Shown here: piece after piece, positions 15,300-33,160 of the stretch
How the letters are laid out: every line of letters begins with the position of its first letter
Position numbering within the stretch: position 1 is the first letter of the stretch
Assembly (NCBI GenBank): GCA_027353395.1
Contig: DAIEHU010000001.1
Coordinates: forward strand, 1-33,217
Length of the DNA stretch: 33,217 bases
Direction: 5' to 3'
DNA from: Desulfobacteraceae bacterium
Lineage (GTDB): Bacteria; Desulfobacterota; Desulfobacteria; Desulfobacterales; Desulfosalsimonadaceae
Notes under the pieces: model-generated
The model's input: only the letters and a program-made list of their open reading frames with translations
Database searches by the model: none
What the model was told of the DNA's origin: nothing
Made by a program: the position numbers and the translations under genes

Positions 15300-15322
15300 G
15301 TCTTCTTTGCTTTCAATGCGTC

Positions 15323-18222: not shown

Positions 18223-19359
18223 ATGAATTATGACTTCAGCGATAAAGAATTTAATCTTTTTGTGGAAATACATACGTTGATGGGGACATTCGCGAAAGAG
18301 AACGATTTGGAGACCAAGGATGCGGAAAAATCGGAGAAAAACACCCGACGGGCCCTGGCGCTCCTTTCCAGAACCCCTTATTTAACATTGGGTATCGAAA
18401 AAGCAGATAATTATAATGGTCTGCTCACGCTCATGGGCGGCATGGAAACTATCGCTGCGGCTTCGCCGTCTCTGTTTTTATCCATCGAAACCAGCACCCG
18501 GATTTTTGGACGGATTTTAAGCGCCTGGGGCAGCGCCTCCCAAAAGGAAAAACTGCTGCCGGCCCTGTTGAACGGTCAGATCATCGGTGCGGTTGGCTTA
18601 TCGGAAGACGCCATGAACGTGGACAATGATCCCCTGATGACCACGGCGGTGATGGACGGGGACAGCGCAATCATTTCCGGACACAAACAGTATGTGGTGA
18701 ACGGCCCCGTTGCGGACTGGTTAGCTGTCGCGGGAAGGCTGGACGGGAAAAACGCCATTTTTCTGGTTGAAAAAGGGACGCAAGGGCTCTCCATTGGTGG
18801 AAAAGCCGCTACCTTGGGCTATGAAGGCGTTGCCATTTCCAATCTGATGTTCGAAAACTGCGCTATTGCATCAAGCCAGGTGATCTTTCCCGAAAATGAC
18901 AAAACGATGTTAACCACGCTAAAGCTATGGGAAAACCAGATTCTTATCGGAGCGAGCCTGGGGCTCATGAAAAGGGCATTTGAGTCGGCAAAAGTATATG
19001 CCAAAAAACACAAAACCGGAGGAAAGCCGATCATCGCCTATCAGGAAGTCGGGTTCAAATTGGCTCAAATGCTGACCCTGTTTCAGGCTTCTCAATTATT
19101 TGCTTACAAGGTCGCGTGGGCGGCGGATGCCGAACCGAAGGACATTGAATCATTAACTCTTTGCGCCAAGGTGTTCTGTACGGAAGCCGCCGAGCAGGTG
19201 GCCGGCGACGCCATGAAAATTCTCGGCGGTTCGGGATTTTTATCCGGAAACCCTGTGGAAGAAGCATTCCGCTGCGCCAAGTATGGGCAGATCGCTGGAA
19301 CTTCCACTGAAATTTCGCGGGTCAAAATCGGCGACAGCGCCTTGGGTTTGATGAAATAG
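18223..19359 (+). CDS. Acyl-CoA dehydrogenase-fold protein with degenerate signature motifs; possible non-FAD partner subunit
   Basis: At 378 aa it has ACAD length and layout (VVNGPVADW, ILGGSGF, IAGTSTEI). The signature-1 block reads GLSEDAMNVDNDP instead of [ST]E..[GA]G[ST]D, and signature 2 is also off consensus. Confidence 0.8.
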   Translation: MNYDFSDKEFNLFVEIHTLMGTFAKENDLETKDAEKSEKNTRRALALLSRTPYLTLGIEKADNYNGLLTLMGGMETIAAASPSLFLSIETSTRIFGRILSAWGSASQKEKLLPALLNGQIIGAVGLSEDAMNVDNDPLMTTAVMDGDSAIISGHKQYVVNGPVADWLAVAGRLDGKNAIFLVEKGTQGLSIGGKAATLGYEGVAISNLMFENCAIASSQVIFPENDKTMLTTLKLWENQILIGASLGLMKRAFESAKVYAKKHKTGGKPIIAYQEVGFKLAQMLTLFQASQLFAYKVAWAADAEPKDIESLTLCAKVFCTEAAEQVAGDAMKILGGSGFLSGNPVEEAFRCAKYGQIAGTSTEISRVKIGDSALGLMK

Positions 19360-19377: not shown

Positions 19378-20052
19378 ATGCCTGCAAAAAAATTAATAAA
19401 AGAAGAAAATTTATCCAAATCCGCCCAGCGGCGGCAGCGGGAACGGGAGCATCGCTATCAGACCATTCTGACAGCGGCTGAAAAACTTTTCGCCACGGAA
19501 GGCTACCACAAATCCAGCATGGAGCAGATCGCCAATGCCTCTGAAGTGTCGGTGGGCGCAGTTTATTTTTATTTTAAAAACAAAGAGGATCTTATCATTC
19601 AGCTCTTGGATGAAATCGGATATGTACTTCGAAGCACGCTGGGCAATGCGTTTAAAAAACATGGTCCCACCATGGAAGGCTTCAAGCAGGCGGGGTATGC
19701 TTTTTTTGAAGACTTCTGCGTAAACTACCCGGAAAAATGCGCCATTATCTTCCGGGAATCGGTCGGCAACAGTCCCGAACTGGAGGGGCGCCGGAAAAAG
19801 CTCTTTGAAAAATGCACCGGCGACGTGCGCTCCGCCTTACTGTCGGTTTGCGAGAATCAAGGGCTGAAGTTTAAGGGGCAATATTCGGCTGAAGTGATCG
19901 CCGTCAGCATTATGGGGATTTACGAACGCGTTGCCTATCAATATTTGTTCTGGCAGGACGCCTCCAACGATATCCGTCTCATCGGCCGCGACGCTGTGGG
20001 TTTTATCACCGGCGGCGTCAACTATCTGCTCAATGAAATCTCATGCACTTAA
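19378..20052 (+). CDS. TetR/AcrR-family transcriptional regulator
   Basis: N-terminal HTH region: ILTAAEKLFATEGYHKSSMEQIANASEVSVGAVYFYFKNKEDL. Length is 224 aa. Confidence 0.9.
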   Translation: MPAKKLIKEENLSKSAQRRQREREHRYQTILTAAEKLFATEGYHKSSMEQIANASEVSVGAVYFYFKNKEDLIIQLLDEIGYVLRSTLGNAFKKHGPTMEGFKQAGYAFFEDFCVNYPEKCAIIFRESVGNSPELEGRRKKLFEKCTGDVRSALLSVCENQGLKFKGQYSAEVIAVSIMGIYERVAYQYLFWQDASNDIRLIGRDAVGFITGGVNYLLNEISCT

Positions 20053-20615
20053 AAGGCGCTTTGCATACCCATACGACCTGTTCCGACGGTGAACTGACCA
20101 TCGAAGAAGCCGTTCGGATATACACCGGACTGGGATTTGATTTTATCGCCCTCACGGACCATGACTACCTCATGCGGCCGGACTGCTACAGGTCGGTCGC
20201 AGCCCTGAAGACCGCTCTGATCATTTTTACCGGCGTGGAAATGACCGTTTTTGAAAAGGGGTACGTGCATGTCAACCGGATTGATGGGGACAAGGATGTT
20301 CTCCATGTTTTCAATCATCCCTCAGAACTCGATCTCCCCATGGAAAAAGCAATTGAAAGGATTTGCGCTGTCTCGGAAAAGTTTCCGCTGGATGCGGTGG
20401 AAGTGACTTCCAAGGGATTCCGTGCCCCCGAATTTGAAATTCCGCGAATCCCGTTGCCGAAAGTCGCCACGGATGATTCCCATACCCGGATCGGATGCGG
20501 AAGGGCATGGATTGAGATGGATTGCATGAGGGATAAAGACAAAATCATCCGGGCTATCCGGCACGGGGATTTTTGGAACTGTTACACGGAAACCCGTTAT
20601 TTGTTTATAAAATAA
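20043..20615 (+). CDS. Minimal PHP-domain metal-dependent phosphoesterase
   Basis: The 190-aa ORF has HTHTTCSDG, ALTDHD, GVEM, FNHP and TDDSH, which is the full PHP metal-ligand series. Its start overlaps the TetR stop by 10 nt. Confidence 0.7.
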   Translation: MHLKGALHTHTTCSDGELTIEEAVRIYTGLGFDFIALTDHDYLMRPDCYRSVAALKTALIIFTGVEMTVFEKGYVHVNRIDGDKDVLHVFNHPSELDLPMEKAIERICAVSEKFPLDAVEVTSKGFRAPEFEIPRIPLPKVATDDSHTRIGCGRAWIEMDCMRDKDKIIRAIRHGDFWNCYTETRYLFIK

Positions 20616-20652
20616 AAATATATAGCCCATTCAAATGAAGGAGGGACATGCA

Positions 20653-21813
20653 ATGGCGAAAAGAGTTGGTATTTGTGCGGTTGCGCAGACAACATATGAG
20701 CGCGACAAAAAAGACATCCGGTTTCAGGGCATGGCCCTGGAAGTTCTGGAAGCGCTCCGGAAACAGGTGGATGTCACATTTTCACGGCATGTGAAGGGCG
20801 CTAAAGGCGTCGATATGTCCATCAGCGTATCCGACGATATATTTGACGCCCGGACCATCTCGGACAATGCAATGACGGATGTCCTCGGCGCGCATTTCGG
20901 ATGCGAGGAAAAGGTCGCTCAGGAAGGGATTCAGGCATTGTATTACGCTTTGGCCGCAATCCAGTCCGGACACAACAATATGGTGCTGGTGATGGGCCAC
21001 TGCAAGGAGTCCCAGGCGCAAAGCCGGAACATGGTGACCCACATGGCCTTTGATCCCTTTTTTACCCGTCCCGTGGGAATTGATTTCTGCGCAGCGGCTG
21101 GTCTGCAGGCCCAGGCATACAGCGCCAAATCGCAAATCACGGATGAACATCTGGCGAAGATCGTCGTCCGCGCAAGGGAAAACGCATCCAAAAACCCATG
21201 TACGCAGGAAATCGGCAAAGTGTCCGCGGAAGAGGTCATGGCATCTCCGATGCTGGTCGATCCCATTCGCGAACTGCACGCCTATCCGGTTTCGGACGGG
21301 GCTGTGGGCATGATTCTCGCCACGGAAGATACCGCCAAAAAAATATGCAAAAATCCGGTCTGGATTACCGGCGTCGGCAACTGCATGGACAGTTTCTTTT
21401 TGGGCGACCGCGATTTGACTTCCAATTTCGCCCTGAAAAAGGCCGTGCAATATGCGTATAAACGAGCCGGTATCACAGATCCCCGGTCCGCCTTTGACGT
21501 CATTGAATTGTCCGACCAGTACGCCTATCAGCTTCCCATGTGGGCGGAAGGCATCGGTCTCTGCGATGCCGGGAAAGGCGCGAAATGGCTGGACGGCGGC
21601 GGGCCGGTTAAACAGAACGTCAATACGTCAGGCGGTATGCTGGCCGGCAACCCGCTGATCTTGGGCGGACTTGTCCGTGCGGCGGAGGCGGCCATTCAAC
21701 TGCGCGGCGAGGCCGGGGACCGTCAGATCAACAATGCAAAAACAGCCATCGCTCATGGCGTTATGGGGCCGGCAGGTCAATTTCATTCAGTCATCACATT
21801 GGCAAGGGCTTAG
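20653..21813 (+). CDS. Thiolase-fold protein A (SCP-x/Ltp-like) lacking the canonical catalytic residues
   Basis: Thiolase-fold blocks are present: YPVSDGAVGMILA, NTSGGMLAGNPLILGG and QLRGEAGDRQ. Ala occupies the nucleophile position (KVAQEG). ATG 20653 follows AAGGAGGG (20638-20645); the ORF-track start at 20635 is an alternative. Confidence 0.85.
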   Translation: MAKRVGICAVAQTTYERDKKDIRFQGMALEVLEALRKQVDVTFSRHVKGAKGVDMSISVSDDIFDARTISDNAMTDVLGAHFGCEEKVAQEGIQALYYALAAIQSGHNNMVLVMGHCKESQAQSRNMVTHMAFDPFFTRPVGIDFCAAAGLQAQAYSAKSQITDEHLAKIVVRARENASKNPCTQEIGKVSAEEVMASPMLVDPIRELHAYPVSDGAVGMILATEDTAKKICKNPVWITGVGNCMDSFFLGDRDLTSNFALKKAVQYAYKRAGITDPRSAFDVIELSDQYAYQLPMWAEGIGLCDAGKGAKWLDGGGPVKQNVNTSGGMLAGNPLILGGLVRAAEAAIQLRGEAGDRQINNAKTAIAHGVMGPAGQFHSVITLARA

Positions 21814-21823
21814 GAGGCGAACA

Positions 21824-23002
21824 ATGAAAAAAAATAGAAATGTCGGCATTATCGGAGTAGGCCAATCCGTTTTTTCAAGCCATCGGGAAGAGGTGAACCA
21901 GCCGGAAATGATTCATGAAGCGGTTCTCGAGGCATTACAACATGCGGGAATGACCATTGGGGATGTGGACTGCATCGTTCATGGTAATATGGAACTCTTT
22001 GAAATGATTCATCAGCCTGATCTTTGGCATACCCTGGGCACCGGCGCTTATGGCAAGGAAACCCTGCGGGTCACCACCGGCGGCACCACCGGGGCCACCC
22101 TATGCTGCACGGCGGATTATCTGGTCTCATCCGGGCTTCACGACGTGGTGCTGGCTATCGGTTTTGAAAAGCTCCAGGAAGGGCATACCACCGGCGGCAT
22201 CACCAACATGGCCGATGCGCTCTGGGCCAGACAGCTTCAGACCGGCGCCTTAACCGGTATGACAGCCGCCCAGGTCATCGAAGAATTTGGCGAAGAACGG
22301 GCGAAAAAAGCCGCCATGAAATACAGAATTATCATGGACAAACATGCCATGAAAAATAAAAAAGCCCACCGCCGTCTGGGCCTTGAATTTGACCAGGCGG
22401 ATGACCTGATGGTCAATTCTCCGGCCCTGGTGGGTGAACTTCGCATGATTCATATGTGTTCCCAGTCTGATGGCGCCTGCGCCATGATTTTCGCCTCCGA
22501 GGAAAAAGCCAAACAGTTCTGCAAGCAGCCTGCATGGATCAAGGACCATATTACAGTCCACCGGGAAGAAAGCTTCTGCCTTTTCGGCGACGCGCCCGTT
22601 GTCTATTCTCACCGGTATGCTGCTGAAAAATTGTTTGAACGCAACGGTATCAAGAATCCGCGCAAAGAAATCGATATGTTTGAAATGTATGACCCGTCTT
22701 CCTGGTGGGGGCTTGACTGGCTCCGGCAGTTTCTGCTGTTTGAAGGGGATGAACATCTCAAAATGGTGGAAAATGACGATATCACCATTGACGGCAGCTT
22801 TCCGGTGAATCCATCCGGCGGCGTCACGGCATCGAATCCCATCGGGGCCACGGCCATGGTAAGGGTGGCGGAAGCGGCTCTTCAAATTATGGGGGACGCG
22901 GGCGATCATCAGGTCAAAAAGACCGTTAACCAAGCCTTGGCATCGGGATTCGGCGGGACCATGTGGACGGTTCTGTTCCTGCTGACCCGGAACGTCCCAT
23001 AG
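21824..23002 (+). CDS. Thiolase-fold protein B (SCP-x/Ltp-like) lacking the canonical catalytic residues
   Basis: AIGFEKLQEG, CSQSDGACAMIFASEE and NPSGGVTASNPIGATAMV are present, with Gly at the nucleophile position (TTGGTTGA). ATG 21824 follows AGGAGG (21812-21817). The ORF-track start at 21671 overlaps gene A and is rejected. Confidence 0.85.
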   Translation: MKKNRNVGIIGVGQSVFSSHREEVNQPEMIHEAVLEALQHAGMTIGDVDCIVHGNMELFEMIHQPDLWHTLGTGAYGKETLRVTTGGTTGATLCCTADYLVSSGLHDVVLAIGFEKLQEGHTTGGITNMADALWARQLQTGALTGMTAAQVIEEFGEERAKKAAMKYRIIMDKHAMKNKKAHRRLGLEFDQADDLMVNSPALVGELRMIHMCSQSDGACAMIFASEEKAKQFCKQPAWIKDHITVHREESFCLFGDAPVVYSHRYAAEKLFERNGIKNPRKEIDMFEMYDPSSWWGLDWLRQFLLFEGDEHLKMVENDDITIDGSFPVNPSGGVTASNPIGATAMVRVAEAALQIMGDAGDHQVKKTVNQALASGFGGTMWTVLFLLTRNVP

Positions 23003-23111: not shown

Positions 23112-25457
23112 ATGAACTTAGGCAAATACATCGATGATGCCGTCAAAAAATACAGGGATCTTCCATATATGCAGTTTTATGACCGCACCATTACATACGG
23201 CGATTTTAGCAAAAAAATTAACGCCCTGGCCAATGCACTGAAAAAACAAGGATTTAAAAAAGGTGATTTTATCCACGTATGGGTGCAGAACAGCCCGGAA
23301 ACCCTGATCGCCTATTATGCCATTATCAAAATCGGCGCTGTGGCCGGCCCCATCAACGGGTGGTGGAAAGCGCCGGAAGTGGAATACCTGTTAAACGATT
23401 CCAAAGGCTGTGGTCTTATTGTTGAAGATCAATACCTTTCCATTTACAACGAGATTAAGGATAAATGCCCGAACTTAAAAAAAATCATCGAGGTCAGCGA
23501 AAAACCGGCCGACGGGCATATTTCTTTTGCCGCACTGCTGGCGGAAGGGGACAACACACCCTTTGAGAGCGACGCGGACCCCGAAGATATTGCCTTTATC
23601 TTCTATACGTCCGGCACCACGGGAAACCCCAAGGGCGTTTTGCTTTCCAATAAGAATGTGGTGGCCGACGCCAACGGGATCAATGCGGCCCTGAATACGG
23701 ATGAAAATCGGAATTTCCTCTGCTTTCTGCCCCTGTTTCACGTCAACGCAATGCTCACCTGCACATCCGCCCTGGAAAAAGGCCATCAGATTATTCTGCG
23801 GAAACAGTTTTCCGCCAGCGAATTCTGGGAAGTGGTGGAAAAATATAAAGTGAATTTTTGGTCCGCGGTTCCGGCAGTCTATCAGATTCTGCTCTCCGAC
23901 CCTACCCGCCAGAAATTTGATTTGAGCTCCCTTGAATTCGGCATCTGCGGTGCCGCCCCCCTGACCCAGGAAACCATGACCAACTTCCAGGACACATTTG
24001 GCATTCCCATCGTCGAAGGATATGGCCTTACGGAAGGCACTTGTGTCAGCACCATCAATCCGATGAATGGTGTCCGCAAGATCGGTTCCATCGGCCTGGC
24101 CCTGCCCGGCCAGGAAGTTCTGATTGTTGATGAACACGGAAATGAGGTTCCCACTGGGGAACGCGGTGAGATCGTCATCAAGGGCGATAATGTCATGAAG
24201 GGATATTACAACAAGCCCGAGGAAACCGCCAAAACCATTATAGGTGGCTACCTGCATACCGGAGACGTGGGCGTCAAGGACGCGGACGGCTATATTTTCA
24301 TTGTGGACCGGATGAAGGACATGATCATCCGGGGCGGGGAAAATATCTATCCCAAGGAAATCGACAATCTCCTGGCAGGCCACCCCAAAATTAGCGAGGC
24401 CGCAACCGTAGGCGTTCCGGACAAGACCATGGGGGAAGAAGTCAAAGTATTTGTGGTGGCGGAAGACGATTCCCTGACCGAAGAAGAAGTCATTGAATAC
24501 TGCAAACAAAACCTCGCCTCATTTAAAGTCCCGAAATATGTTGAAATCCTTAGCGAGGATTTTCCTCGAAGCCCCATCGGCAAAGTACTGAAAAAGACAC
24601 TTCGGGAGTGGGGGCTGAAAGGCTCGCCCACCAAGCCCAAGGGGCCGGAAGTCACGGTGAATGATATTTTCGGCACCATGGAATCGCGGGTCAATCCGGA
24701 TGGCGTTAAAGGCATAACCGCCAACTACGGGTATATTATTACCGGCACGGGCGGCGGCGAGTATACCGTGTGCGTGTCTGACGGCAGGGTCCAGGTCAAG
24801 GAAGGCATCCACAGCCCCAACGTCACCACCACCTGCTCGGCCAAGGACTGGATCGCCATCACTCTGGGCAAGCTTGATGGCATGACCGCCTTTACCTCCG
24901 GAAAACTGAAAGTCGAGGGCGATATGGGTCTGCTGGGTAAAGCCACCAAATTCTTTAAAAAATACACGCCCCCTGCCGGCGGTGACCCGGTGGAAAAAGG
25001 CGAAGAGCTTATCGTCAAAAAACAGATTCTATCCATCCCCCAAAAATTTTCCACCGGTCCGGTCATGGGCAAATTCTTAAATGCGTTTAAAGATAAAAAA
25101 ATACTGGCGAACCGGTGCCCGAAATGCGGCCGTCTCCAGCTCCCCCCGAGAGAAGTATGCGCCGAATGCGTGGTCCGTGCTGCCGACTGGGTGGAAGTCG
25201 GCCCGGATGGCGTGATCTCCATCATGGATGTCACCTTCTATGCCAGTCCGGATCCACTGACCGGAGAGAGCCGGGAAACGCCTTATGTTTCCGCCCACTT
25301 CCTGCTGGATGGGTGCAAAGGCCATGAAACCCTCTGGCATGAATTAAAGCCCGAGGACAGGGATCGCGCAAAAAAAGGAGACCGGGTCAGGCCGGTATGG
25401 AATGAAAACCGAATCGGCGCCATCACGGATATTTTATACTTTGAACTCATCGATTGA
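23112..25457 (+). CDS. Tri-domain fusion of an AMP-forming acyl-CoA synthetase, an SCP2 lipid-binding domain and a DUF35 Zn-ribbon/OB-fold domain
   Basis: Residues 1 to about 500 have YTSGTTGNPKGV (nt 23604-23639), GYGLTEG and GDVGVKDADGYIFIVDRMKDMIIRGGENIYPKEID. Residues about 512-618 have WIAITLGKLDGMTAFTSGKLKVEGDMGLLGKATKFF, an SCP2 pattern. Residues about 640-781 have CPKCGRLQLPPREVCAEC plus an OB-fold tail. Confidence 0.85.
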   Translation: MNLGKYIDDAVKKYRDLPYMQFYDRTITYGDFSKKINALANALKKQGFKKGDFIHVWVQNSPETLIAYYAIIKIGAVAGPINGWWKAPEVEYLLNDSKGCGLIVEDQYLSIYNEIKDKCPNLKKIIEVSEKPADGHISFAALLAEGDNTPFESDADPEDIAFIFYTSGTTGNPKGVLLSNKNVVADANGINAALNTDENRNFLCFLPLFHVNAMLTCTSALEKGHQIILRKQFSASEFWEVVEKYKVNFWSAVPAVYQILLSDPTRQKFDLSSLEFGICGAAPLTQETMTNFQDTFGIPIVEGYGLTEGTCVSTINPMNGVRKIGSIGLALPGQEVLIVDEHGNEVPTGERGEIVIKGDNVMKGYYNKPEETAKTIIGGYLHTGDVGVKDADGYIFIVDRMKDMIIRGGENIYPKEIDNLLAGHPKISEAATVGVPDKTMGEEVKVFVVAEDDSLTEEEVIEYCKQNLASFKVPKYVEILSEDFPRSPIGKVLKKTLREWGLKGSPTKPKGPEVTVNDIFGTMESRVNPDGVKGITANYGYIITGTGGGEYTVCVSDGRVQVKEGIHSPNVTTTCSAKDWIAITLGKLDGMTAFTSGKLKVEGDMGLLGKATKFFKKYTPPAGGDPVEKGEELIVKKQILSIPQKFSTGPVMGKFLNAFKDKKILANRCPKCGRLQLPPREVCAECVVRAADWVEVGPDGVISIMDVTFYASPDPLTGESRETPYVSAHFLLDGCKGHETLWHELKPEDRDRAKKGDRVRPVWNENRIGAITDILYFELID

Positions 25458-25478: not shown

Positions 25479-26378
25479 ATGAGCACAGCAACAAATGATT
25501 GTTTTATCGTCAATGGGAAGCTGGCCCTTCCCTATCAATACTTTGCCGGCCGAGCCGGAAGCCGGTTTATCATCAGCCTGCGGGATGAAAAAAAAATCAG
25601 GGGCTTAAAATGTCAGAAGTGCGGCAAAGTGTTTGTTCCGCCACGGGCTACCTGTGAAACCTGCTTTGAAGACATATGCGAGAACTGGGTGGATGTGAAA
25701 AATACGGGCGTTGTCACCTGTTTTACCATCATCCGCTATAAAGAGCCCCATCAGCCGGTTGACCCGCCCTATATTCTGGGGCTTGTCAAACTGGACGGCG
25801 CGGACACCCCGCTCGCCCACATCGTCAAAGGCGTACCTTTGAGCAAGATGAAAACCGGCCTCAAGGTCAAGGCGGTGTTCGCCAAAAAAACCACCGGCGG
25901 CATTATGGATATTGATCATTTCCAGGTAGTTGATGACAAACCTAAATTTGAAATGGGCTATTCCTATGATGAACTGGAGATCGGCATGTCCGCATCGTTT
26001 ACCAAAACGATTTCAGAGACCGATGTCTACCTGTTCGCGGGGATTTCCGGGGATTTCAACCCCATGCATATGAACGAAGAATTCGCCAAGATGACGCCTT
26101 TCGGCACCCGTATCGCTCATGGGGCTCTGCCCCAAAGTCTTATAGCGCCGGTTCTCGGCATGAAACTTCCGGGCCTGGGCACGGTCATTCCGGAAATCAC
26201 CGTCCGGTTCAAACGGCCCACCTATTTTGGCGACACCATCACCGCCATCGGCGAGGTCGTCGAAAAAATAGAAAAAAAACGATGGGTCCGCATGGAGCTC
26301 CGCTGGACCAATCAAAAAGATGAACTGGTGGCGGAGGGGTCTTGCCTGGCCATACCGCCGATGCCATTCAATAAATAA
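25479..26378 (+). CDS. DUF35 (Zn-ribbon/OB-fold) fused to a MaoC-like (R)-specific enoyl-CoA hydratase
   Basis: Residues 1 to about 150 have KCQKCGKVFVPPRATCETC plus an OB-fold. Residues about 160-299 carry the hot-dog hydratase-2 motif FAGISGDFNPMHMNEEFA (nt 26034-26087) and IAHGAL. Confidence 0.85.
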   Translation: MSTATNDCFIVNGKLALPYQYFAGRAGSRFIISLRDEKKIRGLKCQKCGKVFVPPRATCETCFEDICENWVDVKNTGVVTCFTIIRYKEPHQPVDPPYILGLVKLDGADTPLAHIVKGVPLSKMKTGLKVKAVFAKKTTGGIMDIDHFQVVDDKPKFEMGYSYDELEIGMSASFTKTISETDVYLFAGISGDFNPMHMNEEFAKMTPFGTRIAHGALPQSLIAPVLGMKLPGLGTVIPEITVRFKRPTYFGDTITAIGEVVEKIEKKRWVRMELRWTNQKDELVAEGSCLAIPPMPFNK

Positions 26379-26390
26379 GGATAAAATTGC

Positions 26391-27554
26391 ATGACATACG
26401 AATTCAAAACCGAATCCACCTATCAGGAATATTTCACCAAATCCCATGATCTGGTCAGAAAATCCGTCCGGGAATTTATTAAAAAAGAAGTGCTGCCGTT
26501 TATCAACGAATGGGAGGAAGCCGGGGAGTTCCCGAAAGAAATATACAAAAAAGCCGGGGATGTGGGAATCTTAGGTATTGGGTTTCCCGAAAAATTTGGT
26601 GGCACGCCGGGAGATATCTTTTTTGGGGTGGCGGCCAGCGAGGAACTCATGCGGTCCACTTCTGGCGGTTTTTGCGCAGGGCTGGGCTCCTTAAATATCG
26701 CGTTGCCCCCGATTTTAAACCTGGGTTCAGAGGAACTGAAACAAAAATTCATCCCGCCCGTGCTGGCCGGAGATAAAATCGCGGCCCTGGCCATCACTGA
26801 ACCCGGCGGGGGATCGGATGTGGCGAATATCAAAACAACGGCAGTGAAAGACGGCGGCCATTATATTATCAACGGCAGCAAGACGTTTATCACCAGCGGC
26901 TGCCGGGCCGACCAGGTCACCTGTGCGGTCCGCACCGGCGGGGAAGGCGCAAAGGGCATCAGCATGATCGTTGTGGAAAAAGGAACGCCGGGCTTTTCCG
27001 TCTCCAAAAAACTGAAAAAAACCGGCTGGTGGGCATCCGACACGGCCGAGCTCTTTTTCGACAATTGCCGCGTGCCGGCGGCAAACCTGATCGGCGAGGA
27101 AAACCAGGGATTCTACGCCATCGTGATCAATTTCCAGCAGGAACGGCTGGCGCTGGCGGTTATGGCCAACATGACGGCCCGCATGGCCCTTGAAGAAGCC
27201 ATCAAATATGCGAAGCAACGGGAAGCCTTCGGCAAACCCCTGACCGGTTTTCAGGTGACCCGGCACAAGCTGGCGGACATGGCGACACTGGTGGAGGCCA
27301 GTACGGAATTCACCTACCGGGTGGCGGCCAAAATCGGCGCGGGCGTCGACCAGATCAAGGAAGTGTCCATGGCCAAGAATTTTGCCTGTTCTGTCAGCGA
27401 CAAGGTCACTTTTGACGCGGTCCAGATTTTCGGCGGGTATGGCTATATGCGGGAATACGTGGTGGAGCGCCTGTACCGGGACAACCGGATCCTTTCCATC
27501 GGCGGCGGAACAACGGAAATCATGAAAGAAATCATATCCAAAATGATGATGTGA
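26391..27554 (+). CDS. Acyl-CoA dehydrogenase
   Basis: The 387-aa ORF has AITEPGGGSDVAN, FITSG, QIFGGYGYMREYVVERLYRD and IGGGTTEI. Confidence 0.9.
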   Translation: MTYEFKTESTYQEYFTKSHDLVRKSVREFIKKEVLPFINEWEEAGEFPKEIYKKAGDVGILGIGFPEKFGGTPGDIFFGVAASEELMRSTSGGFCAGLGSLNIALPPILNLGSEELKQKFIPPVLAGDKIAALAITEPGGGSDVANIKTTAVKDGGHYIINGSKTFITSGCRADQVTCAVRTGGEGAKGISMIVVEKGTPGFSVSKKLKKTGWWASDTAELFFDNCRVPAANLIGEENQGFYAIVINFQQERLALAVMANMTARMALEEAIKYAKQREAFGKPLTGFQVTRHKLADMATLVEASTEFTYRVAAKIGAGVDQIKEVSMAKNFACSVSDKVTFDAVQIFGGYGYMREYVVERLYRDNRILSIGGGTTEIMKEIISKMMM

Positions 27555-27655: not shown

Positions 27656-29458
27656 ATGATGGAAAAAACAATCACTGAAGTTTTCAAAAATCGCTCCCAA
27701 AAATATAAGAACCGGCTGGCCGCCGAGAAGAAAAAAAGCGGCAAATGGGAAAAGATGACCTGGAGCGAATATTATGATCGCGCCCGATTTCTCGGCATCG
27801 GTCTCTATTCTCTGGGAATCAAAAAAGGGGACATGGTTGCCATCCTGTCTGAAAACTGTCTGGAATGGATTGTCACCGACATGGGGGCTCTGGGTATTGG
27901 CGCCGTGGTGGTGCCGGTTTATACGACGCTGGTCGCCGAAGAAGTCAAATATATTGTTGAAAATTCAGAATCCAAGGTCATTTTTGTTGAAAATAAAATG
28001 CAGCTCGACAAGATCCTCTCTTTTGTTGATGAAGTGAAGTCTCTGGAAAAAATCGTGGTTTTCAATAACAGGGACGCCAAAAACAGCCATCCGGAAGTCA
28101 TCAGCTTTGAGGAACTCCTTGCCTCCGGAAAAGACGGCATTGAAAAACCGGCCTTGTTTGAGACCCTTGCCGCTGAAGTCGCCCCGGAAGACCTGGCCAC
28201 CATTGTTTACACTTCCGGCACCACCGGCGTTCCCAAAGGGGCCATGATCACCCATAAAAACATCATGGCGGTCATCCGTTCGCTGGACAGCATCATCCCC
28301 AAATTCGCCTATGATACGGACCAGACCGTGCCGCTGCTGCCGCTCAGCCATGTATTCGAGCGCGTGGCCGGCCATTTTTACGGCATGTACGTGGGGCTCA
28401 CGGCTTCCTACGCCGAAAGCATCGACACCTTTGTGGTGGATGTCAAGGAAAAGCGCCCGACGGTGGTTCTGGCGGTTCCCAGGGTTTGTGAAAAAGTCTA
28501 CCAACGGATTCTCGGCCAGGTGGAGGAACAGCCCGAGTGGAAGCAAAAAATGTTCCACTGGGGATACAATGTGGGCCTTGAGATCAGCGCGTTGCGGGAA
28601 AAGAAAAAGCCGATTCCGCTGTTCCTTGGGCTTCAATACAAGCTGGCCTATAATCTGATCTTTAAAAAACTGGCGGATGCATTGGGGGGAAGGGTCCGGT
28701 GGATGACTGCATCCGGCGCGCCCACGTCCCGGGATATCATCCTGTTTTTCAATGCCTCCGGCATCACCGTCATTGAAGGATACGGCATGACGGAATCCTG
28801 CGCCCCGGCCACCATGAGCAGTCTTTCGGATTATAAAATAGGGACGGTCGGGAAACCGCTGCCAGGTGTTGATATCAAAATCGCCGAAGATGGCGAAATT
28901 CTGGTCAAGGGCGATAATGTATTCGCCGGATACTGGAAAATGGAAAAAGAAACGAAAAACGCCTTCACGGATGACGGGTATTTGATGAGCGGGGATATCG
29001 GGAAATTCGACGAAGATGGATTTCTGCTGATCACGGACCGGAAAAAAGATCTGATCATTACTTCCGGCGGGAAAAATGTCGCACCCCAGAAAATTGAGGG
29101 AATTTTCAAATTCGATCCCCTGTTCGCCCAGTTTATTGTGGTGGGGGAACGGAAAAAATTCTTGAGCGCGCTGATCAATATTAACCTGGAACAGGCCCAG
29201 CGGCTTGCCGCACAGCAGGGCGTCGCATTCGATAAACCACAGGACTTGCTGGACAACAAGGCGTTTCTGAAAATCGTGGATGAGCATGTTGCGGAGAAAA
29301 ATCAAAAACTGGCCCGGTATGAAACCATCAAAAAATACCGGATTATTCGCGATGAATTTTCTCAGGAAGGCGGAGAATTGACCCCGTCGCTGAAGATGAA
29401 GCGCAATGTGATTTATAAAAAATACGACGGCCTCATTGATACGATGTATGAGGGTTGA
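27656..29458 (+). CDS. Long-chain-type AMP-forming acyl-CoA synthetase (FACL/FadD-like, 600 aa)
   Basis: IVYTSGTTGVPKGAMITHKN, EGYGMTE, GDIGKFDEDGFLLITDRKKDLIITSGGKNVAPQKIE, and a C-terminal LTPSLKMKR. Confidence 0.9.
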   Translation: MMEKTITEVFKNRSQKYKNRLAAEKKKSGKWEKMTWSEYYDRARFLGIGLYSLGIKKGDMVAILSENCLEWIVTDMGALGIGAVVVPVYTTLVAEEVKYIVENSESKVIFVENKMQLDKILSFVDEVKSLEKIVVFNNRDAKNSHPEVISFEELLASGKDGIEKPALFETLAAEVAPEDLATIVYTSGTTGVPKGAMITHKNIMAVIRSLDSIIPKFAYDTDQTVPLLPLSHVFERVAGHFYGMYVGLTASYAESIDTFVVDVKEKRPTVVLAVPRVCEKVYQRILGQVEEQPEWKQKMFHWGYNVGLEISALREKKKPIPLFLGLQYKLAYNLIFKKLADALGGRVRWMTASGAPTSRDIILFFNASGITVIEGYGMTESCAPATMSSLSDYKIGTVGKPLPGVDIKIAEDGEILVKGDNVFAGYWKMEKETKNAFTDDGYLMSGDIGKFDEDGFLLITDRKKDLIITSGGKNVAPQKIEGIFKFDPLFAQFIVVGERKKFLSALININLEQAQRLAAQQGVAFDKPQDLLDNKAFLKIVDEHVAEKNQKLARYETIKKYRIIRDEFSQEGGELTPSLKMKRNVIYKKYDGLIDTMYEG

Positions 29459-29475
29459 AAAGAGGAGGGAGAAAT

Positions 29476-30630
29476 ATGAGCGGTAGAGTCGCCGTCTGCG
29501 CCGTGGCGCAGATCAAGAACGAACCGGATATCTGGTATCAGAGATTCCAGGGGATGCTCTTTGAGTGTTTTGAATCCATCATCAAGCAAACCGGGGTGAC
29601 CTTCGACATGGAAAAGGGCATCCGGAACATCATCACCTGCTCCGATGACGTGTTTGACGCCCGCACCATTTCCGACAACGGCGTGACGGACGCGGTGGGC
29701 GCGCATTTCCGGGGCGAGGAAAAGGCCGCCCAGGATGGCATCAACGGCTTGGGATATGCCATGGCATCCATTCTGTCCGGTCACGATGATCTGGTGCTCT
29801 TGATGGGGCACTGCAAGGAATCCCAGTCGGAAAGCCGGAATATGTGCAGCAATCTGGCATTCGATCCGTTTTTCTGCCGGCCCCTGGGACTGGATTTCTT
29901 AAATGCCGCCGCTTTTCAGGCCCGGGCCTATATGAATAAATCCGGAGTCACGGATGCGCATCTGGCAAAAATTGTCTCCCGTTCCCGCAAGCTTGCGGCT
30001 AAAAATCCATATGCCAGAGAAAACGATCCCATCACGGAACAGAATGTTTTAGAATCACCGCTCCTGGCCGATCCCATCCGGCAACTGCACCAGTACCCGG
30101 TCACTGACTGGGCGGTGGGAATGCTCCTGTGCTGCGAGGATCGCGCCCGTGAGTTTACGGACAACCCGGTATTTCTCACCGGATTCGGAAGCTGCATGGA
30201 CAGTTATTTTCTGGGGGACAGAGACCTGGCGTCCAATTTCGCCCTAAAAAAAGCCGCGCAACGGGCTTACCGCATGGCCGGAATTTCAGATCCCAAAAAA
30301 GAGTTTGATATTGCGGAATTAAATGACGCCATTGCCTATCAATTGCCCATGTGGGCGGAAGGTCTGGGACTTGCCGATGAAAATCAGGGGGGCGAATGGG
30401 TTGCATCCGGAGCGTTGGATGCCCAGCACGTCAACCTTTCCGGGGGCATGCTAAACGGCAATCCGATTATGCTGGGGGGGCTTGCCCGGGCAACGGAAGC
30501 CATTTTACAGCTCAGGGGCGAAGCCGGCGACCGGCAGGCGGAAGGTGCTGCAAAAGCCGTGGCCCACGGAACCACAGGCCCGGCCGGGCAGCACCATGCG
30601 GTGATTATTCTTGAGAGGCAGGGGGTATGA
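29476..30630 (+). CDS. Thiolase-fold protein A', paralogue of 20653..21813
   Basis: It shares DDVFDARTISDN, GAHFRGEEKAAQDGI, MGHCKESQ, AYQLPMWAEGLGL, SGGMLNGNPIMLGG and QLRGEAGDRQ with A. ATG 29476 follows AGGAGGG. The ORF-track start at 29455 is a TTG that overlaps the ligase stop. Confidence 0.85.
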   Translation: MSGRVAVCAVAQIKNEPDIWYQRFQGMLFECFESIIKQTGVTFDMEKGIRNIITCSDDVFDARTISDNGVTDAVGAHFRGEEKAAQDGINGLGYAMASILSGHDDLVLLMGHCKESQSESRNMCSNLAFDPFFCRPLGLDFLNAAAFQARAYMNKSGVTDAHLAKIVSRSRKLAAKNPYARENDPITEQNVLESPLLADPIRQLHQYPVTDWAVGMLLCCEDRAREFTDNPVFLTGFGSCMDSYFLGDRDLASNFALKKAAQRAYRMAGISDPKKEFDIAELNDAIAYQLPMWAEGLGLADENQGGEWVASGALDAQHVNLSGGMLNGNPIMLGGLARATEAILQLRGEAGDRQAEGAAKAVAHGTTGPAGQHHAVIILERQGV

Positions 30631-31829
30631 ACAAAATGGGATATAAAAAGAAAAACAGAAATGTCGGCATCGTCGGCATCGGCGAAACCAAATTTTCCAG
30701 CCACCGGGAAGACGTGAACCAGCCGGAAATGATTCATGAAGCCGTCCGCCAGGCGCTGGATGATGCGGGGCTCAAAATCGATGATATCGACTGCGTGGTC
30801 CACGGCAACATGGAACTGTTTGAAATGATTCACCAGCCGGACCTCTGGCATGTGCTGGGAACCGGCGCGCATGGAAAGGATTCTTACCGTCTCACCACCG
30901 GCGGCACCACCGGCGGGACGCTGGTCTGCGCCGCGGATAACCTGGTCGCCTCCGGCATGTACGATGTGGTCATGGCCATCGGGTTTGAAAAACTTCAGGA
31001 AGGCCATACCACCGGCGGCATCACCAATATGGCGGACCCGCTATGGGCAAGGAAGCTTCAGTCCGGGGCGTTGACGGCCCAGGCGGCCGTAAAGCTCATC
31101 GATGAATTCGGAGCGGACCGGGCCCGGAAAGCGGCCATGACCTACCGCATCATCATGGACAAGCACGCCTGTAAAAATCCCAACTCCCACCGGGCGTTCG
31201 GTCTGGATTGGGACCAGATGGACGATCTCATTAAAAATTCCCCGCCGCTCATTGGCGATCTGCGGCTCATCCACATGTGCTCCCAGTCGGACGGGGCCTG
31301 CGCCATGATTTTTGCATCCGAGGAAAGGGCCAGGCAGATCGCAAAGACCCCGGTATGGATCCGGGACCATATCACCGTGCACCGGGAAGAGACCCTGGAT
31401 ATGCACAATAATTTTTATCCCAATAGAACAACCCACCGGTTTGCCGCGGAAACCCTTTTTAAACGCAACGGCATCACAAATCCCCTGGAATATTTTGACG
31501 TGTTTGAAATGTATGACCCGTCCGCATGGTGGGGACTTGACTGGCTACGGGAATTTTTTTTGCTCAAAGGCGACGAGCATCTAAAGCTGGTGGAAAACCA
31601 CGAAATTATGATTGACGGCAAAATGCCCGTCAATCCATCCGGAGGCGTCATCTCCGCCAATCCCATTGGCGCCACCGCCATGGTCCGGACGGCCGAGGCC
31701 GCCAAGCAGGTCCGGGGCAATGCAGGTCCGCACCAGATACCAAGGCCCGTCAACCATGCCTTGGCATCCTCTTTCGGCGGGACCATGTGGACAGTGTTAA
31801 CCATGCTTGAAAAAGAATTGAACTGGTAG
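30627..31829 (+). CDS. Thiolase-fold protein B', paralogue of 21824..23002
   Basis: It shares NQPEMIHEAV, HGNMELFEMIHQPDLWH, TTGGTTGG, AIGFEKLQEGHTTGGITNMAD, CSQSDGACAMIFASEE, FEMYDPSAWWGLDWL, NPSGGVISANPIGATAMV and FGGTMWTVL with B. It has an ATGA overlap with A'. Confidence 0.85.
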   Translation: MNKMGYKKKNRNVGIVGIGETKFSSHREDVNQPEMIHEAVRQALDDAGLKIDDIDCVVHGNMELFEMIHQPDLWHVLGTGAHGKDSYRLTTGGTTGGTLVCAADNLVASGMYDVVMAIGFEKLQEGHTTGGITNMADPLWARKLQSGALTAQAAVKLIDEFGADRARKAAMTYRIIMDKHACKNPNSHRAFGLDWDQMDDLIKNSPPLIGDLRLIHMCSQSDGACAMIFASEERARQIAKTPVWIRDHITVHREETLDMHNNFYPNRTTHRFAAETLFKRNGITNPLEYFDVFEMYDPSAWWGLDWLREFFLLKGDEHLKLVENHEIMIDGKMPVNPSGGVISANPIGATAMVRTAEAAKQVRGNAGPHQIPRPVNHALASSFGGTMWTVLTMLEKELNW

Positions 31830-31838
31830 GGGGAATCC

Positions 31839-32687
31839 ATGACTGAATTTTACGGAATCAAAATTGAAGACATATTCAATTCCATGAAGGGCCGCTTCCG
31901 TCCCGAAGGCGCTTCCGGCGTCACAAACACCTTCGGTTACGCCATCAAGGATGCCGGCAAATGGAAACTGACCATTGCAAACGCTGCAATGGCGATTGAA
32001 AAAACCGATGACCTGTCCGGATGCGATGTGGTTTTAGACACGGACGCTGAAACATTCGTGGGCTTAAACATTGGGAAAGTGGACGCCATGTCCGCCCTGA
32101 CCTCCCGGAAGCTGAAAGTGAGGGGGGATTTCAATACCTTCGGCCTGACCAGCCGGATGTTTCAAAAATACGTGACGCCGGGACAGGAAACAAGGCAGGC
32201 GCAGGAGCTGATCGCCCTTAAAAAAACCATTTCGGTGAATCAGCGCTTTGCTACGGGCCCTGTTTTCGGCAAATTTTTGAAAGGATTAAAAGACAAAAAA
32301 ATACTGGCCATCAAATGCCCGGTGTGCGGGCGGCTTCAATCTCCTCCCAGGGAAACCTGCGCCATTTGCAGGGCCAGAAATAATGAATGGGTGGAAATCG
32401 GACCCAAGGGAGAACTTCGGATGATGGAATACTGCTATTACGCCAGCCCGGACCCCCTGACCGGCGAGACCCGCGAAACCCCTTATGGAGCCGTCGGCAT
32501 TCTTCTGGACGGGTGCAAAGACGAAGAAGTATTCTGGCATCTGCTCCGCCCGGACCAGCTGGACCAGGCCAAAATGGGAAATGTGTTTTACGGCAAGGTG
32601 ACCCACGGCACCCGGCTGCGGCCGGTCTGGAATGAAAAAAGAACCGGCACCATAGAAGACATTAAATATTTTGAAATCGACGAATGA
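31839..32687 (+). CDS. SCP2-DUF35 didomain protein, paralogue of the C-terminal 270 aa of 23112..25457
   Basis: The N-terminal SCP2 pattern is VDAMSALTSRKLKVRGDFNTFGLTSRMF. It is followed by FATGPVFGKFL, KCPVCGRLQSPPRETCAIC, YASPDPLTGETRETPY and RPVWNEKRTG. Confidence 0.85.
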   Translation: MTEFYGIKIEDIFNSMKGRFRPEGASGVTNTFGYAIKDAGKWKLTIANAAMAIEKTDDLSGCDVVLDTDAETFVGLNIGKVDAMSALTSRKLKVRGDFNTFGLTSRMFQKYVTPGQETRQAQELIALKKTISVNQRFATGPVFGKFLKGLKDKKILAIKCPVCGRLQSPPRETCAICRARNNEWVEIGPKGELRMMEYCYYASPDPLTGETRETPYGAVGILLDGCKDEEVFWHLLRPDQLDQAKMGNVFYGKVTHGTRLRPVWNEKRTGTIEDIKYFEIDE

Positions 32688-32698
32688 GGAGTCCGGTC

Positions 32699-33160
32699 AT
32701 GGATAAAAATTTCGATACAACAGATTGTTATATGATTGAAGGAAAACTGGCCCTGCCCTATACGTATTTCGCCGGGCGGGTGGGGAGCACATTTATTACG
32801 ACCATCCGCGACAGGCACAAAATCATGGGCGTGAAATGCAACGCCTGCAATAAGGTATTTGTGCCCCCCCGCCAGACATGCGAACGGTGCCTGGAAGATA
32901 TCCGTGACAACTGGGTGGAACTGGGCAATACCGGGGAGGTCGTCAATTTCACGGTCGTCCGCTACGATGACAAGCACCTGCCGAGAAAAGCCCCATTTGT
33001 AATGGCTATGATTCAACTTGATGGCGCGGACACGCCTATGGTGCATATTCTGGAAGGAATTGATCCTGAAAGAATCACCATCGGCCTGAAAGTCCAGGCG
33101 GTGTTTGCGGCAAAAACCACCAACACCATTTTAGACATCGATCATTTTGAACCGGTATAA
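32699..33160 (+). CDS. Stand-alone DUF35 (Zn-ribbon/OB-fold) protein, paralogue of the N-terminal half of 25479..26378
   Basis: GKLALPYTYFAGRVGSTFI, KCNACNKVFVPPRQTCERC, LDGADTP, LDIDHF. ATG 32699 follows GAGGAG (32687-32692). The ORF-track start at 32684 (ATGA overlap) is an alternative. Confidence 0.8.
   Translation: MDKNFDTTDCYMIEGKLALPYTYFAGRVGSTFITTIRDRHKIMGVKCNACNKVFVPPRQTCERCLEDIRDNWVELGNTGEVVNFTVVRYDDKHLPRKAPFVMAMIQLDGADTPMVHILEGIDPERITIGLKVQAVFAAKTTNTILDIDHFEPV

Follow-up and report, generated by a model that had tools for sequence, protein, structure and literature searches.

A ligase-SCP2-DUF35 fusion protein encoded beside a cysteine-less thiolase-fold pair in Desulfobacteraceae

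The DUF35 domain is emerging as a general adaptor on thiolase-fold cores, with examples among steroid aldolases, BbsAB, archaeal mevalonate synthesis and antibiotic acyltransferases. To our knowledge, the only enzymes found on DUF35 so far are hydratases and an HMGS-like domain. Published structures show DUF35 proteins docked onto thiolase-fold enzymes (PMC12329534, PMC12960953), and fusions of DUF35 to SCP2 and hot-dog domains were already listed in 2010 in the SSO2064 paper (PMC2954200). Here, we analyzed a 33,217-nucleotide stretch of contig DAIEHU010000001.1 from a Desulfobacteraceae bacterium (hereafter the window), in which a single open reading frame (ORF) of 781 residues joins an acyl-CoA ligase, an SCP2 domain and a DUF35 domain next to two genes for thiolase-fold subunits, thlA and thlB (together the A/B pair). 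We conclude that this fusion is a real, widespread and uncharacterized variation on the DUF35-adaptor theme. A ligase and a lipid carrier on a DUF35 anchor would extend the adaptor logic to substrate activation and delivery.

That the 781-residue ORF is a genuine, intact three-part architecture is, in our judgment, practically certain. It begins with an ATG preceded by a GAGGAGG ribosome-binding site 5 nt upstream and ends with a TGA, and all four Pfam domains of the protein exceed their curated cut-offs. The composition proposed in an earlier, sequence-only reading of this DNA (ligase, SCP2 and DUF35) was borne out by Pfam, BLASTP, phmmer and Foldseek, and its boundaries for the three parts were correct to within a few residues. 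A genome scan with one genome per species gave 40 loci, 32 of which hold the ligase, and in 27 of these 32 a single frame covers everything between the start of the ligase and the end of DUF35. Two of the intact loci lie on complete chromosomes, those of Desulfosarcina widdelii PP31 and D. alkanivorans PL12, and P0010, a 99% identical protein from another assembly, has the same uninterrupted fusion. The hidden stop codon or frameshift at a domain junction that the earlier reading had named as a risk is ruled out by the frame kept in these loci and in P0010; sequencing error at the junctions was likewise rejected on the 27 loci and the two complete genomes.

The SCP2 domain of the fusion matched Pfam PF02036 at residues 527-615 (E 1.4e-14, 54.7 bits against a cut-off of 21.3). 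In phmmer searches it matched the SCP2-like domain of human MFE-2 (1ikt, E 1.3e-7) within a set of chains that also comprised 8af2, 1c44, 2c0l and others (E 1e-7 to 1e-5), such that its closest solved relatives are the SCP2 domains of MFE-2 and SCPx. In MFE-2, the SCP2-like domain is fused to an (R)-hydratase, and the substrates are branched and bile-acid compounds. The SCP2 part of an AlphaFold model had predicted local distance difference test (pLDDT) values of 74-88, and Foldseek matched it to SCP2 structures with template modelling (TM) scores of 0.6-0.69. Alignment of the orthologs revealed what the earlier description of a single SCP2 domain had missed, namely that SCP2 is a repeat unit of ~113 residues, running from PEVTVxDIFGTMESRVNP to FFKKYxPP and present in one to four tandem copies, and that ortholog length differences are mainly whole SCP2 units. 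One unit is present in the window protein, P0010 and Desulfatirhabdium butyrativorans, two in D. alkanivorans (~895 residues), three in D. widdelii and in P0001, which is 94% identical to the window protein (~1006 residues), and four in a CSSED10-310 metagenome-assembled genome (MAG; 1158 residues). Among the 27 intact genome loci, four have one unit, 15 have two and eight have three, the window protein being a minority one-copy form. Near-identical SCP2 copies vary in number among orthologs (P0001, P0007, P0011 and P0018), also where overall identity reaches 94%, and free SCP2-DUF35 proteins (P0121-P0124) likewise carry one to three copies.

This variation bears on whether a missed stop codon, a frameshift or the collapse of tandem SCP2 repeats could have produced the 781-residue ORF artificially. 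The repeat region is assembly-prone, as four MAG loci (L011, L029, L039 and L040) are broken within it, and the closest long relative, at 94% identity, has three SCP2 units compared with the one in the window. However, the fusion is uninterrupted in the 27 loci and two complete genomes, the one-copy form turns up in many independent assemblies and is also that of the isolate Desulfatirhabdium butyrativorans, and the three repeats of the long relative (locus L001, L001 11534-12541) are just 81-86% identical to one another in DNA, a divergence that an assembler is able to resolve. Moreover, the window unit is 80-85% identical to each of the L001 units, is neither a copy of any of them nor a chimera, and no repeat remnant was found in the window. 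We therefore regard an artefactual ORF as exceedingly improbable. A collapse of repeats in the window assembly is judged unlikely from these comparisons and would apply to the copy number rather than to the fusion. In the four broken MAG loci, the ligase ORFs are 579-598 residues long and end inside the SCP2 repeat region; these short ORFs are probably repeat-caused frameshifts or misassemblies rather than true fissions.

The ligase part carries the AMP-binding motifs YTSGTTGNPKG (residues 165-175) and GYGLTE (residues 303-308), whose residues are invariant in the ortholog alignment, as are the core motifs TGD and DRxKDxIIRGGENIYP. The hinge or A8 motif, DRMKDMIIRGGENIYP, lies just upstream of the C-terminal subdomain and is also invariant, and the A10 lysine is K491 in PIGKVLKK, conserved across all aligned orthologs. 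Individually, R400, K402, D403, G408-N411, P488, G490 and K491 do not vary. The AMP-binding motifs and a C-terminal subdomain with A8 and A10 are the features by which ANL acyl-CoA ligases are recognized in sequence, and the ligase part scored 492.5 bits against a cut-off of 476 for NCBIfam PRK06187 (long-chain-fatty-acid--CoA ligase). Judged by motif content, the ligase is catalytically complete. The C-terminal subdomain of ANL ligases has to rotate during catalysis. Linker 1 between the ligase and SCP2, which the AlphaFold model covers from nt 24612, is Pro/Lys-rich and predicted to be disordered, consistent with a loose tether.

The DUF35 part was only partly captured by profiles. Pfam matched its zinc ribbon to zf-ChsH2 (PF12172) at residues 660-686 (E 6.5e-7, 29.5 bits against a cut-off of 23.2) but did not report the OB half (PF01796) at E<=0.01. 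The canonical DUF35 zinc-ribbon spacing is Cys-x2-Cys-x10-Cys-x2-Cys (PMC12329534), and the spacing in the fusion matches it exactly. BLASTP aligned residues 637-781, at full length, with another DUF35 protein encoded in the window (32684..33160; 30% identity, E 4e-18), a canonical zinc-ribbon and OB-fold protein that matches PF01796, as does P0124, a 43% identical free homolog. phmmer matched the fusion DUF35 to 3irb (E 1.5e-9) and also to 6esq_E and 6ok1_B. The AlphaFold model of residues 501-781 (mean pLDDT 65, with 60-74 in DUF35 and <50 in both linkers) shows a helix and five to six beta-strands after the zinc ribbon. Foldseek matched SCP2 domains separately from DUF35 chains, the latter including 3irb_B (TM 0.65 over 141 columns) and ChsH2-DUF35 (6ok1_B, TM 0.66), with further whole-chain matches to Shy-DUF35 (9myr_B), PhlB (5m3k_B), BbsA (7pxp) and the archaeal DUF35 protein (6esq); MucC was also in the list. 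Because the pairwise, PDB, model and Foldseek matches agree, the OB half is real despite the Pfam miss, and a full DUF35 consisting of a C4 zinc ribbon and an OB fold is present. Thus, where the earlier reading made its case depend on profile support for the C-terminal 270 residues, Pfam supplied it for SCP2 and the zinc ribbon but not for the OB half, which was recovered by BLASTP, phmmer and Foldseek.

An inserted loop in the OB fold, YASPDPLTGE(S/T)RETPY, is strongly conserved in SCP2-linked DUF35s, both fused and free (near 32400-32450 in the paralog encoded in the window), and is absent from a second DUF35 type at the locus. The loop has pLDDT<50 and could be a partner- or ligand-specific interface.

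The fusion gene was found beside the thiolase-like A/B pair in every case in the synteny comparison, which supports the earlier reading. The gene order is nearly invariant, with two acyl-CoA dehydrogenase (ACAD) genes, TetR and PHP genes, thlA1, thlB1, the fusion with its variable SCP2 number, a DUF35-MaoC fusion and a third ACAD gene (ACAD1-ACAD2-TetR-PHP-thlA1-thlB1-fusion-(DUF35-MaoC)-ACAD3, hereafter module 1). Essentially all loci with enough flanking sequence have thlA-thlB-fusion-(DUF35-MaoC)-ACAD preceded by ACAD-ACAD-TetR-PHP (Table 1). The DUF35-MaoC gene begins 21 nt 3' of the fusion gene with its own ribosome-binding site, and its product matched the (R)-hydratase 5cpg (E 1.6e-26) and also 3irb in the PDB. 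In loci L014, L028 and L033, what follows the fusion gene was matched by the DUF35 query alone; the missing match to the DUF35-MaoC query may partly reflect a contig end or the coverage filter.

Table 1. Coordinates of the fusion gene, its parts and the neighboring genes in the window.
Feature	Position	Strand	Basis or remarks
Whole fusion gene, ligase-linker-SCP2-linker-DUF35, 781 aa	23112..25457	+	ORF, ribosome-binding site, stop codon, full length kept in relatives
Ligase N-terminal domain, aa 8-366	23133..24209	+	Pfam PF00501 AMP-binding, E 3.8e-94
Ligase mobile C-terminal subdomain, aa 416-491	24357..24584	+	Pfam PF13193 AMP-binding_C, E 1.3e-16
Linker 1 (KKTLREWGLKGSPTKPKG), Pro/Lys-rich	24585..24644	+	pLDDT<50 at model residues 1-11; variable in alignment
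SCP2 unit, aa 512-624, PEVTV...YTPPAGG	24645..24983	+	Pfam, phmmer, AlphaFold/Foldseek, repeat structure
Linker 2, ~aa 625-648, predicted disordered	24984..25055	+	pLDDT<50, model residues 123-148
DUF35 module	25056..25454	+	Pfam PF12172, BLASTP, phmmer, Foldseek, model secondary structure
DUF35 N-terminal helix	aa 650-660	+	Model
C4 zinc ribbon, C669, C672, C683, C686	25089-25169	+	CX2CX10CX2C; invariant in orthologs
OB fold, five to six strands, aa 692-779	25185-25448	+	AlphaFold model
Inserted loop YASPDPLTGESRETPY, conserved, aa 710-725	25239-25286	+	Ortholog alignment
thlA1, thiolase-fold subunit A with degenerate active site, presumed non-catalytic	20635..21813	+	Pfam Thiolase_C_1; AQEGIQA / SDQY / GNP
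thlB1, thiolase-fold subunit B, candidate catalytic (aldolase-like) subunit and presumed DUF35 target	21824..23002	+	Alignments to 6esq_A, 6hsj_A
ACAD1	17036-18178	+	Pfam, synteny, PDB search
ACAD2, more divergent	18223-19359	+	Pfam, synteny, PDB search
TetR regulator	19378-20052	+	Pfam, NCBIfam, synteny
Small PHP-domain protein	20043-20615	+	Pfam, NCBIfam, synteny
DUF35 (zinc ribbon and OB fold, N-terminal) fused to MaoC (R)-specific enoyl-CoA hydratase	25479..26378	+	Pfam, PDB
ACAD3, last gene of the conserved nine-gene unit	26391..27554	+	Pfam, synteny
Module 2, whole paralogous block	27656..33160	+	Pfam, NCBIfam, pairwise comparisons, synteny
FadD11-like ligase, module 2	27656-29458	+	Pfam, NCBIfam
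thlA2	29455-30630	+	Module 2
thlB2	30627-31829	+	Module 2
Free SCP2-DUF35	31839-32687	+	Module 2
Free DUF35	32684-33160	+	Module 2

A paralogous block, module 2, follows module 1 in the window; it adjoins module 1 at roughly half of the loci, two of which have it on the upstream side. The two thlA proteins are 59% identical. The C-terminal ~280 residues of the fusion are 45% identical end to end to the free SCP2-DUF35 protein of module 2 (E 9e-92), confirming the free-standing paralog described earlier. The fusion/fission pair that had been built on it held for SCP2-DUF35 but not for the ligases, which share just 28% identity and fall into different subfamilies (PRK06187-type in the fusion versus FadD11-type with AMP-binding_C_3 in module 2), and the two ligases were rejected as a fission pair on these grounds. 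We found a second pair that had been overlooked, in that the DUF35 half of DUF35-MaoC and the free DUF35 of module 2 share 56% identity, giving the same domain with or without MaoC. Two DUF35 types are therefore each fixed in position after thlB in both modules, with both carrying an enzyme in module 1 (ligase plus SCP2, and hydratase) and neither in module 2. This double fusion/fission relationship, as far as sequence comparison goes, supports the notion that the parts act together better than the ligase pair did. The genes of module 2 also show 4-nt start/stop overlaps between ligase 2 and thlA2 (29455-29458), thlA2 and thlB2 (30627-30630), and SCP2-DUF35 and DUF35 (32684-32687), which suggests translational coupling and hence stoichiometric co-production of these gene products.

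The same data bear on what the DUF35 of the fusion does. It could be a non-covalent acyl-CoA binding and hand-over domain rather than an anchor, in which case the fusion would be self-contained and would activate, bind and deliver its substrate in solution. The SSO2064 paper indeed proposed acyl-CoA delivery by DUF35 in 2010 and listed SCP2 fusions (PMC2954200), and the conserved loop, being specific to SCP2-linked DUF35s, could be a ligand site. In contrast, every DUF35 complex solved since then shows docking or scaffolding on thiolase-fold proteins (6ok1, 9myr, 6esq, 7pxp, 5m3k and 9vbo), the fusion is strictly adjacent to A/B, and both modules provide two DUF35s for each A/B pair. We give the hand-over role little credence. 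That DUF35 proteins are docking partners of thiolase-fold enzymes, as the sequence-only reading had stated, matches the published structures (PMC12329534, PMC12960953), and by analogy with these complexes we consider it reasonably likely that the fusion DUF35 docks on A/B.

The presumed docking partners differ from thiolases at the residues that matter for thiolysis. We used the archaeal thiolase 6esq_A and the SCP2-thiolase 6hsj_A as residue-level references. Compared with these, thlB has TTGGTTG at the position of the nucleophilic cysteine, and its counterparts of HDCF and GHP are YDPS and SNP, respectively, while thlA has AQEGIQA, SDQY and GNP at the equivalent positions and no active-site Cys, Tyr or His; in NCBIfam, thlA1 is PRK06066/PRK07937-like but below the cut-offs. 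The TTGGTTG, EMYDPS and NP motifs were kept in 55 of 56 B orthologs and the A motifs in all 52 A orthologs. Cysteine-less active sites were observed in both subunits of both modules (20635-21813, 21824-23002, 29455-30630 and 30627-31829). We rejected A/B as a thiolase, given that the nucleophilic Cys, HDCF and GHP are absent and the substitutions are conserved in more than 100 orthologs. On these motifs, thlA and thlB are not thiolases despite their annotation, and the A/B complex named in the earlier reading is no thiolase, as neither subunit has the nucleophilic cysteine.

Steroid aldolases have Gly at the nucleophile position and a catalytic-base Tyr in YDHF (Ltp2) or YDCY (Sal), as opposed to HDCF in thiolases (PMC12329534). 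The Tyr-Asp motif and the Gly at the nucleophile position of this retro-aldolase signature are both found in thlB. We found neither a 3-hydroxyacyl-CoA dehydrogenase nor any HAD or SDR gene on the 33 kb of the window, on the 23 kb of locus L001 or in the downstream region of D. widdelii. Since A/B lack a nucleophile, B has the Tyr-Asp motif, and the operon encodes three ACADs and a hydratase but no dehydrogenase, the most likely route would be of the retro-aldol type. Aldolase-type chemistry of A/B itself, suggested by analogy, is a tentative assignment that falls somewhat short of probable.

Many of these observations also speak to whether the operon could serve ordinary beta-oxidation of long-chain fatty acids, with a FadD-type ligase, SCP2 as a solubilizing tail, A/B as a conventional SCP2-type thiolase and DUF35 as a passive accessory. 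The database label "long-chain-fatty-acid--CoA ligase" and the PRK06187 score above cut-off fit such a role, as do the abundance of ACADs in the operon and the membership of the host in a clade of fatty-acid-oxidizing sulfate reducers (PMC11887813). However, the conserved loss of the nucleophilic Cys, HDCF and GHP from A/B, the lack of a 3-hydroxyacyl-CoA dehydrogenase in or beside the operon and the (R)-specific MaoC type of the hydratase all argue against it, and we consider ordinary beta-oxidation improbable.

We lean, if only slightly, towards a model in which two DUF35 anchors tether the ligase with SCP2 and the hydratase to a cysteine-less A/B core that cleaves a hydrophobic acyl-CoA. 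In this model, the ligase would activate a hydrophobic carboxylic acid to its acyl-CoA, and the one to four SCP2 copies would retain or present the poorly soluble compound, either acid or acyl-CoA, close to the ligase and the core. The fusion DUF35 would dock the whole polypeptide onto the A/B pair encoded immediately upstream, as ChsH2-DUF35 does with Ltp2 and Shy-DUF35 with Sal, while the second, paralogous DUF35 type would dock the MaoC (R)-enoyl-CoA hydratase, giving two DUF35 anchors per A/B pair. The three parts of the polypeptide are strung on flexible linkers, both of which are predicted to be disordered, and module 2 repeats the layout with its anchors unfused. The pathway would then run from the ligase through an ACAD and the (R)-hydratase to a non-thiolytic, retro-aldol-type C-C cleavage, much as in the steroid ChsE/ChsH/Ltp2 and Shy/Sal systems but in anaerobic Desulfobacterales and on a bulky or branched lipid acid.

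Several points weigh against this model. The known aldolase proton donors are absent from thlB, with Pro where Ltp2 has His and Sal has Cys and (S/A)NP as the GHP equivalent; as reckoned from the alignment only, an Asn lies near the position of Ltp2 Tyr344 and Sal Gln352. In phmmer searches, thlB matched 6hsj and 6esq_A at ~1e-25 but Ltp2 (6ok1_A) at only 5.6e-7 and Sal (9myr_A) at 2.3e-10, placing it outside the Ltp2/Sal sequence clade and nearer to SCP2-type and archaeal thiolases; the analogy behind the aldolase assignment is thus partial. ACAD2 is not specifically steroid-ACAD-like in the PDB search, a dehydrogenase could be encoded elsewhere in the genome, and the DUF35 model is of moderate confidence (pLDDT 60-74). 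Finally, the geometry of the DUF35 complex in the Sal paper speaks against direct channelling from Shy to Sal (PMC12329534), and tethering therefore need not equal channelling. Both tethering and channelling in the fusion system are plausible possibilities.

A further possibility is that the genes work in the biosynthetic direction, with A/B and DUF35 forming C-C bonds by aldol, Claisen or Friedel-Crafts-type chemistry, as in PhlABC, MucABC and the archaeal thiolase/HMGS complex. A heteromeric thiolase-fold pair with DUF35 is the hallmark of those complexes (PMC12960953), PhlB and MucC are among the Foldseek matches, and P0143 combines an HMGS-like domain with DUF35 and two SCP2 units. Yet those complexes require a catalytic Cys in the ACAT/PhlC subunit, of which there is none here; the three ACADs, hydratase and TetR make a typical catabolic operon; and no polyketide synthase, non-ribosomal peptide synthetase or lipid-synthesis genes are linked. 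A biosynthetic role is in our estimate very improbable.

Returning to the DUF35-anchored cleavage model, its most far-reaching form would make the nine-gene operon an oxygen-independent, dehydrogenase-free aldolytic route by which sulfate-reducing Desulfobacterales degrade lipid acids with a beta-carbon that is branched or part of a ring, with a new heteromeric YDPS-type lyase and a DUF35-scaffolded metabolon. The substrates of such a route would be, for example, isoprenoid, hopanoid/steroid-like or naphthenic acids, and in the metabolon the ligase, the one to four SCP2 units and the hydratase would be plugged into the core through two dedicated DUF35 types. We consider this full form rather unlikely.

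The remaining genes of module 1 showed features of their own. ACAD2 is 38-78% identical among orthologs, compared with 72-95% for ACAD1, and scores weakly for the Pfam N-terminal and middle domains; it could be a degenerate member of a heteromeric ACAD, although its PDB matches are generic. A specific relationship of ACAD1/ACAD2 to the steroid ChsE heterotetramers was unsupported, the best PDB matches being generic IVD- and SCAD-type ACADs. Within the conserved operon, the TetR frame overlaps that of PHP by 10 nt, and the 190-residue PHP protein is phosphoesterase-like, with weak matches to 3',5'-nucleoside bisphosphate phosphatases. On the minus strand of the window (14259-16387), two PilT/T2SSE-type ATPase genes lie between a GNAT gene and ACAD1, whereas locus L001 lacks them (L001 3273-3724); conversely, an FMN_red gene separates ACAD3 from ligase 2 in L001 (L001 15251-16093) and is missing from the window.

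The fusion is found in ~40 species-level genomes. The best 120 database matches to the window protein, at 63-99% identity, all belong to the ligase-SCP2-DUF35 family (P0105, P0112 and P0117 being partial or truncated sequences), and most are from Desulfobacterales or Thermodesulfobacteriota. A 2.7-kb contig, CAZQXW010000134.1 (L036), binned as "Thermoplasmatales archaeon", holds the end of the fusion gene with its DUF35 together with DUF35-MaoC and ACAD3, all at 83-88% identity; its archaeal label is almost certainly a binning error. Database annotation extends at most to "long-chain-fatty-acid--CoA ligase"; some JGI entries already name all three COG functions (ligase, OB-fold protein and sterol carrier protein). 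A library of representatives at 50% identity retains just one of the fused family (P0058), while free SCP2-DUF35 forms with one to three SCP2 units make up several clusters. The fused form being confined to one cluster and the free form spread over several, the fusion is probably the derived state, and it appears to have arisen once, fairly recently and within a restricted lineage, from an SCP2-DUF35 unit that is itself widespread. Other combinations with SCP2 are a ligase with two SCP2 units and no DUF35, the HMGS-like-DUF35-SCP2x2 protein P0143, and an FMN-reductase with three SCP2 units (P0160).

Our literature search, the coverage of which was incomplete, found nothing that characterizes the fusion protein or its operon, including in two Desulfobacteraceae proteogenomics papers, and no account of the ligase fusion, the tandem SCP2 amplification or the nine-gene operon. 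The earlier reading, which did not recognize the architecture as characterized, stands in that respect, but the architecture is common rather than rare. A large part of the carbon oxidation in marine sediments is attributed to Desulfobacteraceae (PMC11887813). A cysteine-less, Tyr-containing A/B points to non-thiolytic C-C cleavage in anaerobes and could bear on the oxygen-free breakdown of recalcitrant branched or cyclic lipids; interest would rise if A/B were a C-C lyase new to anaerobes. Both D. widdelii PP31 and D. alkanivorans PL12, cultured strains whose genomes are complete, carry the operon.

Among known systems, the actinobacterial cholesterol igr system ChsH1-ChsH2(DUF35)-Ltp2 and the Comamonas bile-acid side-chain system Shy(DUF35)-Sal resemble the operon in having a MaoC hydratase with a DUF35 module and a cysteine-less core, as DUF35 there docks on a Cys-less thiolase-fold C-C lyase. 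The operon also resembles them in gene content, their route running from ACAD through hydratase to retro-aldol cleavage without a dehydrogenase (PMC12329534), and thlB shares the Tyr-Asp motif and the Gly at the nucleophile position of their catalytic subunits (PMC12329534). In contrast with those systems, a CoA ligase and SCP2 are also linked to DUF35 here, DUF35 is N-terminal rather than C-terminal to MaoC, A/B is a heteropair rather than a homodimer, YDPS takes the place of YDHF or YDCY with thlB nearer to true thiolases, and the hosts are strict anaerobes. Like this locus, the archaeal thiolase/HMGS/DUF35 and PhlABC/MucABC complexes pair two different thiolase-fold subunits with a DUF35 zinc-ribbon and OB-fold protein, which there serves as the scaffold, but they are biosynthetic and need a catalytic Cys that is missing here, and their DUF35 is free-standing with no enzyme or SCP2, whereas two DUF35 types accompany each A/B pair here. 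BbsAB, the benzoylsuccinyl-CoA thiolase, is similar in placing the DUF35 protein BbsA on an SCP2-type thiolase-fold subunit within an anaerobic beta-oxidation-like pathway of Deltaproteobacteria; however, BbsB is a true thiolase with HDxF, BbsA lacks ligase and SCP2, and the NCBIfam BbsA and BbsB scores of the window proteins are far below cut-off. Peroxisomal SCPx (thiolase-SCP2) and MFE-2 (dehydrogenase-(R)-hydratase-SCP2) also carry SCP2 covalently on beta-oxidation enzymes, although SCP2 is there attached directly to the thiolase or hydratase, while here it is joined to a ligase and DUF35 and tandemly amplified in orthologs. Related as well are the free SCP2-DUF35 proteins (PMC2954200), which correspond to the C-terminal 280 residues of the fusion and to which the fusion adds a complete N-terminal ligase.

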